From a virus (Duplodnaviria; Heunggongvirae; Uroviricota; Caudoviricetes), in IMG/VR virus record IMGVR_UViG_2681813273_000005, positions 1-4,149 of that record: DNA of 4,149 nucleotides, one strand, 5' to 3'. A program made the translations under genes and the position numbers. The notes under the pieces were generated by a model, which did no database searches, had not been told where the DNA came from, and was given only the letters and a program-made list of their open reading frames with translations. Positions 1 to 4,149 of this stretch are shown piece after piece (position 1 is the stretch's first letter; every line of letters begins with the position of its first letter).

Positions 1-186
1 TCTTTGTTGGTCATTGGTTAGATCCATAGTTCTGGCTGTGATTAGGTGAAAGTATACAAGGTTTTTAAAGCGAAGATCACTGTTTTGGCTTCAAGATAGT
101 TTTGATTTATCGTAATCAATCCGCCATAATCCTCTCATCGGAGCCTGAACAACTCCGGTGACTTCTGCGCATTTAAGGGGACTTAA

Positions 187-282
187 ATGCGACCACAATC
201 TGAACTCATCACCTTGTCACAGATGCAGAAATGCACCTGCGATTTTCTGCATTCTGCGGTTTCCGTTAGGGAGGCCGTATGA
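187..282 (+). CDS. Hypothetical small protein (31 aa), possibly the ylcH-like micro-ORF found upstream of ybcN in DLP12-type prophages
   Basis: ATG at 187 preceded by AAGGGGA (173-179); translates MRPQSELITLSQMQKCTCDFLHSAVSVREAV; stop TGA 280-282 overlaps the ybcN ATG (ATGA). Below the ORF-track size cutoff. Position matches ylcH by gene order only; the sequence itself is not recognised. Confidence 0.35.
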   Translation: MRPQSELITLSQMQKCTCDFLHSAVSVREAV

Positions 283-734
283 CTCTGCCAGTAGACGGCA
301 TCAAACTCCATCGCGGTAACTTCGCGGCCATCGGCCAGCAGATTCAGCCATTGCTGGATGCCGGGCAATGCTTACGCCTGCAGGTTAAGCCGTGGCGCGA
401 GAAGCGCAGCCTGTCGCAGAACGCGCTCAGCCACATGTGGTACACGGAGATCAGCGAATATCTCATCGCCCGCGGCAAGACCTTCGCTACGCCTGAGTGG
501 GTCAAAGACGCGATGAAGCACACCTATCTCGGCTACGAAAGCAAAGACCGTGTAGATGTCGTGTCCGGCGAGGTCACCACCGTCCAATCCCTCCGCCATA
601 CGTCAGAGCTGGAAACCGGCGAGATGTACATCTTCCTGTGCAAAGTCGAAGCCTGGGCGATGAATATCGGCTGCCACCTGACAATTCCGCAGAGCTGTGA
701 ATACCAGCAGCTGCGCGATAAGCAGGAGGCGTAA
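279..734 (+). CDS. ybcN: NinB/Orf-family protein (YbcN-like, 151 aa)
   Basis: ORF-track 279..734; RBS AGGGAGG (268-274) 4 nt before ATG; contains the RSLSQN motif resembling lambda NinB RSLDQN; first gene of the nin-like operon by order. Confidence 0.85.
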   Translation: MTLPVDGIKLHRGNFAAIGQQIQPLLDAGQCLRLQVKPWREKRSLSQNALSHMWYTEISEYLIARGKTFATPEWVKDAMKHTYLGYESKDRVDVVSGEVTTVQSLRHTSELETGEMYIFLCKVEAWAMNIGCHLTIPQSCEYQQLRDKQEA

Positions 735-904
735 TGGCTACACCGCTTATTCGTGTCATGAACGGGCACATCTACAGAGTATCAAATCGTCGTAAGCGTA
801 AGCCTGAGCTGAAGCCATCCGAAATACCAACACTGCTCGGATATACCGCTAGCCTGGTTGATAAAAAATGGTTGCGACTGGCAGCAAGGAGGAATCATGG
901 CTGA
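734..904 (+). CDS. ninE: NinE-family protein (56 aa)
   Basis: Hand-translated (not in ORF track): [56 protein letters not shown]; RBS AGGAGG (724-729); start overlaps ybcN stop (TAATG); basic KRKP and WLR motifs typical of lambdoid NinE. Confidence 0.75.
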   Translation: MATPLIRVMNGHIYRVSNRRKRKPELKPSEIPTLLGYTASLVDKKWLRLAARRNHG

Positions 905-1187
905 TTTGAGAAAAGCAGCGCGTGGTCGGGAATGCCAGGTAAGAATCCCTGGCGTATGTAATGGCAATCCTGAAACGTCAGTACTGGCACATATCCGGCT
1001 GGCTGGATTGTGCGGTACCGGTATCAAACCGCCAGACCTGATTGCCACCATTGCATGTTCTGCCTGTCACGACGAAATCGACCGCCGCACATATTTTGTC
1101 GATGCTGAGTATGCAAAAGAATGCGCGCTGGAAGGTATGGCGAGAACGCAGGTTATCTGGCTGAAAGAGGGGGTTATTAAGGCGTGA
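897..1187 (+). CDS. ybcO: YbcO-like Cys-rich protein (DUF1364, putative nuclease), 96 aa
   Basis: ORF-track frame 858..1187 trimmed to ATG 897 ([15 protein letters not shown]...), which has a strong RBS AGGAGG (886-891); overlaps ninE by 8 nt; Cys pairs CQVRIPGVC and CSACH suggest a metal-binding site. Confidence 0.85.
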
Positions 1188-1546
1188 ATACCTACAGCAT
1201 CACATTACCCTGGCCTCCGAGCAATAACCGCTATTACCGCCATAATCGCGGGCGCACACACATCAGCGCAGAAGGGCAGGCATACCGCGATAACGTCACC
1301 CGAATCATTAAAAACGCAATGCTGGATATCGGCCTGGCTATGCCAGTGAAAATCCGTATTGAGTGCCACATGCCGGATCGCCGTCGCCGTGACCTGGATA
1401 ATCTGCAAAAAGCCGCTTTTGACGCACTCACCAAAGCAGGTTTCTGGCTGGATGATGCTCAGGTCGTTGATTACCGCGTTGTGAAGATGCCTGTTACCAA
1501 AGGTGGGAGGCTGGAACTGACCATCACCGAAATGGGGAATGAATGA
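1184..1546 (+). CDS. rusA: RusA-family Holliday junction resolvase (120 aa)
   Basis: ORF-track 1184..1546; GTG start overlapping ybcO stop (GTGA); N-terminus [24 protein letters not shown] matches my recollection of E. coli RusA; position after ybcO is as in DLP12. Confidence 0.9.
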
Positions 1547-1683
1547 TGTTTGAGTTTTATATGGCAGAACTTCTTCGCCACCGCTGGGGGCATCTGCGCT
1601 TATATCGTTTCCCCGGTTCTGTTTTGACCGATTACCGAATACTGAAGAATTACGCCAAAACCCTGACAGGAGCAGGAGTATGA
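1543..1683 (+). CDS. ylcG: YlcG-like small protein (46 aa)
   Basis: Hand-translated: [46 protein letters not shown]; ATG overlaps rusA stop (ATGA); size and position match ylcG of DLP12-type prophages. Confidence 0.7.
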
Positions 1684-1768
1684 AGTCAGAGATAACAATC
1701 AACTAATACTGTTTTGTTGATTTTTGCTTGTAATTGGCGTTCTGGTCTGATTTTTGTGGAGTAAGTTG

Positions 1769-2152
1769 ATGCGTGATATTCAGATGGTTCTTGAGCGTTG
1801 GGGAGCGTGGGCGGCTAATAATCATGAAGATGTGACCTGGTCGTCCATTGCCGCCGGTTTTAAGGGATTAATTACTTCAAAAGTAAAATCTCGCCCGCAA
1901 TGTTGTGACGATGACGCGATGATTATTTGCGGGTGCATGGCCCGTCTGAAAAAGAACAACAGCGATTTGCACGATTTATTAGTAGATTATTATGTAGTCG
2001 GTATGACATTCATGTCACTGGCAGGTAAGCATTGCTGCTCTGATGGTTATATCGGGAAAAGGTTACAGAAGGCTGAGGGCATAATTGAAGGGATGTTAAT
2101 GGCATTAGATATCCGGTTAGAGATGGATATCGTTGTTAATAACTCTAATTAA
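1769..2152 (+). CDS. quuD: Q-family late-gene antitermination protein (QuuD-like, 127 aa)
   Basis: ORF-track 1754..2152 trimmed to ATG 1769 ([22 protein letters not shown]...), with GGAG (1757-1760) 8 nt upstream; Cys-rich region (CCDDD...CGC...HCC) consistent with a Zn-binding Q protein; lies after the nin genes as in lambdoid phages. Confidence 0.85.
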
Positions 2153-2167
2153 TATGCCAATTGTTTA

Positions 2168-2203
2168 CTAAAAATTATTAAAAATGGGGCGTTGCAACGC
2201 CCC
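2168..2203 (-). terminator. Rho-independent terminator candidate for - strand transcription (porin)
   Basis: Perfect 18-nt GC-rich palindrome GGGGCGTTGCAACGCCCC (2186-2203); on the - strand it is followed by ATTTTTAATAATTTTT (complement of 2168-2185). The + strand has only an A-rich tract downstream. Confidence 0.45.
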
Positions 2204-2269
2204 CAAAAATAAAGGGTAATATATAACAGAAGGTTTATATAGTTAGAAGCAAGGTTGTGCTCCTAAAGG

Positions 2270-2330
2270 AAGTGGCTTGAGGGAGCCACTTATATGTTGG
2301 GGAGGCAAAGCCTCCCGCAACATATCTTTT
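2270..2330. terminator. Two adjacent stem-loops between the convergent Q and porin genes; the second is a candidate + strand terminator
   Basis: Hairpin AAGTGGCT/AGCCACTT (2270-2291, loop TGAGGG), then ATATGTTGGGGAGGC-AAA-GCCTCCCGCAACATAT (2292-2325, one mismatch) followed by CTTTT (2326-2330); 15 nt from the porin stop. Confidence 0.4.
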
Positions 2331-2340
2331 AGTAATCAAA

Positions 2341-3423
2341 TTAGAACTGGTAAACCATACCTACAGCAACGATATCATCGGTAGCAACGCCAGATGCTTT
2401 CGTGAAATCGCTCTTATCAATCAGGTTGATTTTGTAATCAACAAAAGTGGACATATTTTTGTTGAAGTAATAGGTTGCACCTACATCAATATATTCAACC
2501 AGGTCCTGATCACCCCACGCACCCAAGTCTTTTCCTTTAGATTGCAGGTAAGCAACGGACGGACGCAGACCGAAGTCGAACTGATATTGTGCAACTACTT
2601 CGAAGTTTTGTGCTTTGTTGGCAATATGGTTATTACCAAAAACAGTCATGTTCTGGGTTTCAGAATAGGTGGTAGCCAGATAGATGTTGTTCGCATCATA
2701 TTTCAGACCAGCTGCCCATACTTCAGCATTTTGACCAGATGCATTCAGGCTGTTGTTACCGTAGATAACCTGATTATTAGTGCGGTCAGATTTAGCATAG
2801 GTTGCACCTACACCGAATCCTTCATACTCATAAGTAGTGGAGAAACCGAAACCATCACCATTAGCTTCAGTTACGTCAGTGCGGTCATTTTTACCCTGAT
2901 ACTGAGCAGCAAAGTTCAGACCATCAACCAGACCAAAGAAGTCGTTGTTACGATAAGTTGCAACACCAGTGGTGCGACCAGTCATGAACACATCTGTTTG
3001 AGTCCAAGTGTCACCACCGAATTCTGGCAGGACGTCAGTCCACGCACCGATGTCGTATGCTACACCGTAGTTACGGCCGTAATCGATGGAGCCGTAGTCA
3101 CCGAATTTCAGGCCAGCGAAGGCAAGACGGGTTTTATCTTTGGAGGAACCTTGAGATTCAGCGCGGTTGCCTTTGAATTCATATTCCCACTGACCGAAAC
3201 CAGTCAGTTGATCGTTGATTTGGGTTTCACCTTTGAAGCCAAGACGGGCATAAGTAGTATCACCATCATCTGCATCATTAGAGGAGAAGTAGTGCTTAGC
3301 ATTAACTTTCCCGTACAGATCCAGCTTGTTACTGTCTTTATTATAAATTTCAGCTGCCTGAGCAGACATCGCCATCAGTACTGATGCAGCTACAGCAGAA
3401 ATTGCCACTGTTAATTTTTTCAT
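2341..3423 (-). CDS. nmpC: General outer-membrane porin (OmpC/OmpF/PhoE family; NmpC/OmpD/Lc-like), intact, 360 aa
   Basis: ORF-track 2341..3483 trimmed to the ATG at 3423, where a typical signal peptide begins ([23 protein letters not shown]|AEIYNK); porin-type composition (Gly/Tyr/Asp/Asn-rich) and C-terminal ...VGMVYQF; convergent with quuD as in DLP12. Confidence 0.9.
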
Positions 3424-3631
3424 CGTGAGCCCTTTTTTTGAACTATTATTAAAAAATGATGTCATTGCGCGATAAATATTCATCTAATCAATGTGATTAT
3501 TTCAAGATGTAAGTTTTGGTTTCTCGTTTGATTTGTGAAGTAGATCTCTATTTTTATCTGAACTTTTTTCTATCGAATCCTATTCATGGCTCTTGACTGA
3601 ATAAAAATAAATCTATTAGCCAATTTATATT
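3424..3631 (-). promoter_or_regulatory. AT-rich porin promoter/5' leader region
   Basis: AT-rich, ORF-free sequence immediately 5' of the porin start on the - strand; 3424-3545 is conserved at ~90% in the second copy (3978-4101). No precise -35/-10 could be assigned with confidence. Confidence 0.35.
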
Positions 3632-3642
3632 NNNNNNNNNNN
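3632..3642. other. Run of 11 N (assembly or scaffold gap)
   Basis: Literal n characters in the sequence. Confidence 0.99.
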
Positions 3643-3790
3643 AAATACGGCATACTCAACCTATTGGAGCCTGAACAATCCGGTGACTTCTGCGCTAATC
3701 GGGGACGTTTATAAGCACATATAATTGATACTATCTTCCTCCATCACAATTTCAGAAATGCACGTGTGATTTTTTTGCATCCGGCGTTTG
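3643..3790 (+). repeat. Diverged copy of the block upstream of ybcN (homologous to about 117-262)
   Basis: By-eye alignment: near-identical core GGAGCCTGAACAA(C)TCCGGTGACTTCTGCGC (140-170 vs 3666-3695) and CAGAAATGCAC..GATTTT..GCAT..GCGGTTT (224-262 vs 3751-3790); flanks more diverged. Confidence 0.6.
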
Positions 3791-3794
3791 GACT

Positions 3795-3968
3795 ATGTGG
3801 AGTTCAAGAGTGGGAAAGTTACAAGAGGTTGAGGGGATAATTAAAGGGATGCTTATGACATTAGATATCCGGATAGGTACGGATATCGTTGTTATTAAAT
3901 CTAGTTCGTTATTATTAAATCTAGTTTATACGTTAAGATGCAGCTACAGCAGAAATTGCCACTGTTAA
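3795..3968 (+). pseudogene. Internally deleted Q-family antiterminator remnant (57-codon ORF)
   Basis: Hand-translated: MWSSRVGKLQEVEGIIKGMLMTLDIRIGTDIVVIKSSS...; aligns to the quuD C-terminus ([33 protein letters not shown]) and to the quuD start context (TGTGGAGT); about 95 internal codons are missing and the native stop is lost. Confidence 0.5.
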
Positions 3969-3977
3969 TTTTTTCAT
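3933..3977 (-). pseudogene. Truncated porin 5' fragment (14 codons: [14 protein letters not shown] then stop)
   Basis: - strand ATG at 3977 with the same RBS context as the intact porin; identical to its first 13-14 codons, then homology ends and a TAA follows (3933-3935). Confidence 0.55.
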
Positions 3978-4101
3978 CGTGAGCCCTTTTATTTGAACTA
4001 TTATTTAAAAATGATGTCACTGCACTACAAATATTCATCCAATCAATGAGATTATTTCAAGATGTAAGTTTTAGTTTCTCATTTAAATTGTGAAGTAGAT
4101 C
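3978..4101 (-). repeat. Diverged (~90% identical) copy of the porin promoter/leader (homologous to 3424-3545)
   Basis: By-eye alignment of GAGCCCTTTT..TTGAACTATTATT..AAATGATGTCA..ATATTCATC..AATCAATG..GATTATTTCAAGATGTAAGTTTT..GTTTCTC..GTGAAGTAGATC, with scattered substitutions. Confidence 0.6.
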
Positions 4102-4149
4102 CCTGGATTTGCCCCTATATTTCCAGACACCTGTTATCACTTAACCCAT

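Follow-up and report, generated by a model that had tools for sequence, protein, structure and literature searches.

The closest described systems include DLP12 (qsr'), the cryptic lambdoid prophage of Escherichia coli K-12, and the site beside fliE in the same strain, where the integrase gene intG is annotated as 'cryptic prophage PR-G' and is followed by yedN' and yedL. The Q-porin-lysis moron module (lc/nmpC/ompD type) of phages, with a Q antiterminator gene and an opposed porin gene, and the insertion sequence IS2 of the IS3 family are two further points of comparison. The window considered here is the whole stretch of 4,149 nucleotides corresponding to positions 1 to 4,149 of the IMG/VR record IMGVR_UViG_2681813273_000005. 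In this window, a compact block of 462 bp (3643-4104), referred to below as the mini-locus, follows a run of 11 N. The mini-locus is very probably the right end of what deletions have left (~2.9 kb) of a cryptic DLP12-type (qsr'-type) lambdoid prophage located between fliE and yedK, with the gap joining two unlinked loci and the remnant being most likely inert.

Compared with DLP12, the island carrying the mini-locus is collinear for emrE, ybcL, ybcM, the ylcH region, the ybcN start, the 3' end of quuD and the 5' end of an nmpC-type porin with its upstream DNA, whereas it lacks ylcJ-ybcK, the stretch from ybcN to most of quuD, nearly the whole porin gene, the lysis genes and all that lies to their right. 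Their locations also differ, DLP12 being at argU and the island at fliE-yedK. This anatomy was obtained by aligning the island of strain S43 with a DLP12-type locus (L004) and with DLP12 of K-12, the gene names being those of K-12. In this alignment, emrE and its upstream DNA are 92.5% identical to the DLP12-type sequence. An unbroken block of 1.7 kb at 89% begins ahead of ybcL, covers ybcL, ybcM and the ylcH region and ends exactly at the ybcN start codon. Next come the last 97 bases of quuD at 82.5%, and the first porin codons with ~340 bp of upstream DNA at 82% overall, the first 168 bases of this last block reaching 92-95% against live porin leaders. These four blocks keep the order and orientation of DLP12, with E values from 1e-22 down to 0, and their identity of 82-92% makes the island a paralog of DLP12 and no copy of it. 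The phage life-cycle genes (replication, Q, lysis, morphogenesis) are gone, and only emrE, ybcL, ybcM and the scar remain. The earlier note had proposed that the block might be a second decayed lambdoid prophage remnant, a proposal supported by this DLP12-collinear scar at a fixed fliE site. The intact emrE, ybcL and ybcM paralogs of the island lie outside the window (6094-7953 of locus L001) and are 89-92% identical to those of DLP12. Strains also carrying DLP12 would therefore hold two copies of these cargo genes.

In every context examined, the gene order is fliF-fliE-(intG scar)-emrE-ybcL-ybcM-[block]-degenerate IS200/IS605 tnpA-tnpB-yedK-yedF-yedE. The remnant is therefore found at a fixed site between fliE and yedK, with an integrase scar adjoining fliE. 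A partial integrase between fliE and emrE is present only in some contexts and is annotated in strain MIN6. The sequence common to K-12 and to S43 and MIN6 (98% identity) comprises fliE and the first ~218 bp of the intG pseudogene, at the left edge of the island; after this scar, both strains diverge into the emrE island before rejoining K-12 at yedK. PR-G of K-12 and the island have the fliE site and the scar in common, whereas the K-12 site is without the emrE-ybcL-ybcM-mini-locus island and displays yedN' and yedL instead. The intG/PR-G similarity was noted at 6503-6781 of the K-12 locus (L023) and at 5761-5897 of L001. No nucleotide similarity was detected between intG and the first ~15 kb of K-12 DLP12, which includes intD; from its position, intG would be the integrase of the DLP12-like element. 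Literature searches returned no description of this particular remnant.

The part of the window preceding the gap (1-3631) is a standard lambdoid module. It includes, on the plus strand, a ylcH-like ORF, ybcN, ninE, ybcO, rusA, ylcG and quuD and, on the minus strand, a porin gene of 360 aa, the names being drawn from the ORFs and from the RefSeq annotation of near-identical loci. All 3,631 bases are 100% identical to a complete chromosome (locus L005, GCA_013147205.1, CP049179.1), and several porcine ETEC genomes are 99.5% identical to this part. In these genomes, the module is part of a full lambdoid prophage, with O/P replication genes upstream and essD-rrrD-rzpD downstream. In strain KKa014, coordinates had led to the suspicion of a full prophage near fliE; it was located instead at ybhC, the lambda attachment region, away from fliE. 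The full ybcN-Q-porin module is part of another lambdoid prophage, at a different chromosomal location from the mini-locus. The DLP12-type homology of the window begins only at ~100-118. Upstream of this point stands an opposite-strand ORF of 125 aa with the O/P replication genes beyond, where DLP12 has ybcM, and this mosaic boundary at 1-117 coincides with the left edge of the homology to the first segment of the mini-locus.

Three separate parts of this module, all delimited by blastn, ORFs and annotation, have a counterpart behind the gap. They are the region of the ylcH-like 31-aa ORF upstream of ybcN (118-281, plus strand), the 3' end of quuD (2054-2152, plus strand), and the first 14 porin codons with the leader and upstream DNA (3383-3549, minus strand), which correspond to segments A, B and C of the mini-locus, respectively. 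When 3643-4149 was compared by blastn with 1-3631, 155 of 168 positions proved identical between 3937-4104 and 3383-3549 (92.3%, E 5e-67), 80 of 97 between 3812-3906 and 2054-2150 (82.5%, E 1e-23), and 110 of 152, in a gapped alignment, between 3644-3789 and 118-261 (72.4%, E 1e-11). All three matches are plus/plus and collinear with the main locus, and they are well above chance because the next best match reaches only E 0.78; with the E values of the three matches, chance similarity is ruled out. An ungapped repeat finder independently recovers the same three paralogous pairs. The repetition of three main-locus parts in conserved order and orientation, which the earlier note had read from the letters, is therefore reproduced by both methods of comparing the window with itself. 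Its coordinates were correct within 1-4 bases, and its estimate of 75-90% identity becomes 72-92% once measured, in agreement with its description of a diverged relative with large deletions and no recent exact duplication. Besides these points, the present analysis adds an IS end at 4104/5-4149, a tandem repeat of 20 bp and the recognition of segment A as the tail of the 1.7-kb block. Homology at the right side ends at 4104 because the IS end interrupts it there; in strain S43, the porin-upstream homology continues for ~210 bases past the equivalent of this position.

The 462-bp block also exists as a contiguous natural locus, being found uninterrupted at 99.8% identity in ~1,060 complete E. 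coli genomes. Its diagnostic part is the junction of segments A and B, where the ybcN-upstream block is fused to the Q 3' end, since this junction is not confusable with any full module. The A-B junction was detected at a coverage of at least 80% in 2,631 of the 5,426 genomes. Among the full-length matches listed, none displays an annotated feature under the block.

The order and orientation shared by the three pieces and the main locus are also what would be left by a recent intragenomic copy of this locus, duplicated and then internally deleted. Such an origin has almost no credibility. Indeed, the identity with the main locus is only 72-92%, whereas the block itself is 99-100% identical across unrelated strains at a fixed site, and it is flanked by its own diverged emrE, ybcL and ybcM. 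A recent segmental duplication was likewise rejected, as near-identity is expected from it and the copies are 72-92% identical. Both the diverged flank and the limited identity with the main locus lead to the view that the block stems from a separate integration.

Segment A (3643-3812, plus strand) is a remnant of the ylcH region extending through the ybcN start codon, a GTG at 3810-3812, and is the paralog of 118-281. It is ~80% identical to DLP12-type loci, where the corresponding sequence is annotated 'hypothetical protein | ybcN', and in this comparison its homology reaches 3812, ending exactly at the ybcN start codon of the DLP12-type locus L004. Compared with locus L020, the ylcH start codon is lost in segment A by a change from ATG to ATA. 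This segment is the mere tail of a longer homology because the ybcL-ybcM-ylcH block continues unbroken over 1.7 kb outside the window. Within the ylcH-region block, otherwise 72% identical between both copies, a 17-mer (TCCGGTGACTTCTGCGC) is perfectly conserved at 154-170 and 3679-3695, and a hairpin followed by a T-run is retained at 217-246 and 3744-3773. These conserved elements may represent a regulatory site ahead of ybcN, such as a terminator of the nin region.

Segment B (3812-3906, plus strand) consists of the last 31 codons of a quuD-type Q antiterminator gene, maps onto quuD of DLP12 and is the paralog of 2054-2150 at 82.5%. The ybcN start codon is joined to it in frame, and the window allele has lost the Q stop codon. 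A complete Q antiterminator gene (quuD, PF06530) would require an ORF of ~127 aa with its N-terminal and central parts, and only a fragment is therefore present. A 57-aa ORF (3795-3968, plus strand), which reads GKLQEVEGIIKGMLMTLDIRIGTDIVV and was compared with the corresponding stretch of QuuD, exists because a deletion (referred to below as deletion 1) fuses the ybcN start codon in frame to approximately codon 96 of Q. In this ORF, the Q tail is preceded by the ybcN ribosome-binding site and the GTG. The ORF is called as a gene in 58 blocks of the public collection, has no Pfam match and is probably spurious. Both Q 3' ends include a perfect GATATCC...GGATATC inverted repeat, at 2108-2131 and 3864-3887, and the 8-10 bases between its arms differ at several positions between the copies. 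It could be a conserved hairpin or merely reflect conserved codons (LDIR...DIVV).

The former end of Q is occupied by two tandem copies of a 20-bp unit, TCGTTGTTATTAAATCTAGT, detected with the repeat finder at 3886-3925 (plus strand), the second of which carries in the window a lineage-specific G-to-A change at 3911. A junction of 11 bases follows (ttatacgttaa, 3926-3936, plus strand), which direct reading and the block boundaries identify as a vestige of the sequence just after the Q stop codon and which abuts the porin remnant. Segment C (3937-4104, minus strand) is this porin remnant, with the 5' end of the gene and its upstream DNA, paralogous to 3383-3549 at the 92.3% given by blastn. On the minus strand, it displays a start codon at 3977-3975, 14 porin codons and then a stop at 3935-3933. 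It is 93-95% identical to the porin leaders of sequenced lambdoid phages. An enterobacterial general porin (nmpC/ompD/ompC type, PF00267) would require the coding sequence of an entire beta-barrel, ~360 aa, and this candidate was discarded, as 14 signal-peptide codons lead to a stop. The mini-locus block thus includes no intact gene. Segments B and C keep the Q 3' end and the opposed porin 5' end of the Q-porin-lysis module, as arranged in the full module of this window and in sequenced phages, but the island retains only 31 Q codons and 14 porin codons. The compact arrangement is absent from sequenced phages, in which only the porin leader matches, the other pieces being found at separate places.

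At its right edge (4105-4149, minus strand), the window displays 45-46 bases from the right terminus of an IS3-family, IS2-like element that entered the porin-upstream remnant. T4104 may belong either to the IS or to the host, which leaves an ambiguity of one base at the boundary. This assignment relies on 46/46 identity between the window terminus and the ends of annotated IS3-family elements in loci L002 and L009. The copy in L002 is 1,331 bp long, with a target duplication of 5 bp and imperfect terminal inverted repeats; this length and this duplication agree with those of IS2, the records themselves reading 'IS3 family transposase'. The last 45-46 bases of the window are thus identical to the right end of such an element, but only one of its ends is inside the window. 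The insertion site is uninterrupted in S43, which provides the empty site, and strain MIN6 carries an independent IS insertion 39 bp further on. The window-specific junction between mini-locus and IS gave no exact match in species-representative genomes or in metagenome contigs, and was absent from the complete E. coli genomes searched.

The run of 11 N (3632-3642), as located by its coordinates and by adjacency searches, stands between sequences that occupy separate places on the chromosome in all genomes examined. A query with the whole window found both halves at one place in none of the 5,426 genomes. The matches with 92% coverage span the same 3,631 bp, the extra piece being the mini-locus porin leader matching the full porin leader. 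Likewise, a search allowing at most 30 bases between the pre-gap end and the post-gap start gave no match in species-representative genomes and metagenome contigs. On the left side, locus L005 continues past 3631 into ordinary porin-upstream DNA, with an IS1 ~190 bp further on and then the lysis genes; on the right side, 3643 is always preceded by the 48 bases that follow the ybcM stop codon. The IS1 of L005 stands in the porin-to-holin intergenic region, from ~5610 downward, with further IS elements nearby, and the source lineage may therefore be described as IS-rich.

Since the window presents both halves as one sequence with a short gap, they might be truly adjacent, a rearrangement having moved the fliE-site remnant beside the porin-upstream region of the full prophage and the 11 N hiding a few bases. 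IS elements promote rearrangements, and this lineage carries such elements, both in L005 and as the IS end at 4105-4149. True adjacency is nevertheless improbable, as it was encountered neither in complete E. coli genomes nor in species-representative genomes or metagenome contigs. Moreover, no repeat or IS boundary coincides with either break point, 3631 being in unique DNA. Homologous recombination between the paralogs cannot make the join either because the break points are out of homologous register. The N run is thus, with high probability, an assembly/scaffolding or concatenation join of two unlinked loci, and both halves are presumably non-adjacent in the window's own strain as well. 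A join of two loci across the gap was the other possibility raised by the earlier note, and it agrees with the lack of adjacency in any genome searched and with the different continuation of L005 past 3631. The evidence supports a decayed second remnant and a join across the gap at once, and both proposals appear true.

The history of the island would begin with the integration of a DLP12-like element beside fliE, the remnant standing immediately inboard of the intG scar. The ancestral order would have been int-...-emrE-ylcJ-ybcK-ybcL-ybcM-ylcH-ybcN-ninE-ybcO-rusA-ylcG-Q-porin-lysis genes. One deletion of 2.1 kb took ylcJ-ybcK. Deletion 1, in main-locus coordinates 282-2053 (1,772 bp), removed the sequence from ybcN codon 2 to approximately Q codon 95. 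Deletion 2 removed ~2165-3382 (~1.2 kb), with the bidirectional hairpin terminators between Q and the porin and 346 of the 360 codons of the latter, the placement of its left edge being approximate given the sequence divergence. The order of these deletions is a presumed one. Through them, the cargo genes emrE, ybcL and ybcM remained intact.

The scar also varies among strains. The 20-bp unit has one copy in strain EC14, two copies in the window as well as in S43, ED1a and others, and four copies in MIN6; EC14, with its single copy, displays a TGA at the position of the Q stop. Genomes of the EC14 type have undergone a third deletion, which took the rest of the porin stub and the upstream DNA, joining two GCAGCTAC octamers, one in the porin stub and the other inside the neighbouring IS200/605 tnpA. 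These genomes are many and mostly of human origin, and their scar is fused to the IS200/IS605 tnpA, for which the RefSeq annotation gives an extended 174-aa product whose 3' end overlaps the Q remnant. The coordinates of this deletion are 2764-2800 in the EC14 locus (L019), and 8295-8310 and 8968-8985 in L001. With the insertion in the window lineage (4104/5) and that in MIN6, two IS insertions occurred independently. Nucleotide diversity across ~10 loci amounts to 0.0013-0.0016 in ybcL/ybcM, compared with 0.002-0.007 for segments of the remnant and 0.022 for the repeat. In this small sample, the higher diversity of the remnant goes in the direction predicted by relaxed constraint and suggests it. 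The scar is still eroding in separate lineages, through repeat slippage, IS insertion and microhomology deletion.

The question arises as to whether such a remnant is debris or a retained functional mini-module. In one version of the latter, the porin promoter with a leader RNA or 14-aa peptide would serve either as a decoy that captures porin-targeting small RNAs or as an antisense to Q'/ybcM; in another, the ybcN ribosome-binding site and start codon would drive a ~52-aa Q-tail peptide. The leader indeed shares 92-95% identity with functional phage porin leaders, the Q tail is in frame with the ybcN start codon, and the 57-aa ORF is among gene calls. The porin leader is also better preserved (92-95%) than the neighbouring segments (72-82%), which could hint at residual constraint or gene conversion; leaders and signal-peptide starts evolve slowly anyway. 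Retention of a function is nonetheless very unlikely, as the leader is deleted in whole lineages of the EC14 type, an IS was twice inserted in or beside it, and the 20-bp repeat alters the frame and length of the ORF between strains. The diversity above that of the adjacent genes, in ~10 loci, also argues against it. Moreover, an Rfam scan of the whole window with E up to 1 gave no match, and a scan for the sigma-70 consensus gave no promoter match upstream of either porin copy. A terminator scan flagged the hairpin internal to Q, present in either copy, together with weak terminator-like hairpins of the ylcH region. For a lineage-specific 45-aa ORF on the minus strand, an exact-protein lookup returned nothing on record. 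Very little likelihood can be given to the conjecture that the well-preserved porin promoter, leader and 14-codon stub still produce a transcript, serving as a small-RNA decoy or as an antisense into Q' and ybcM. If it were true, retention in approximately half of E. coli would reflect selection, beyond slow decay. The mini-locus is thus most likely a pseudogenised scar without function.

The two sides of the N run very likely make the window a chimera, and the apparent proximity of the full module to the mini-locus should therefore not serve as a basis for any conclusion. What is gained is an identity for a stretch of 460 bp that carries no annotated feature among the full-length matches listed. 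The mini-locus is a further case of a well-known kind, the cryptic lambdoid prophage remnant, here a DLP12 paralog at another site; it reflects ordinary prophage decay and would not surprise a specialist. On a small scale, it neatly illustrates how a prophage erodes step by step, losing its phage functions to excision but retaining the cargo genes emrE, ybcL and ybcM. Different decay states coexist within the species, and the variable 20-bp repeat together with the alternative deletions could be used as lineage markers.
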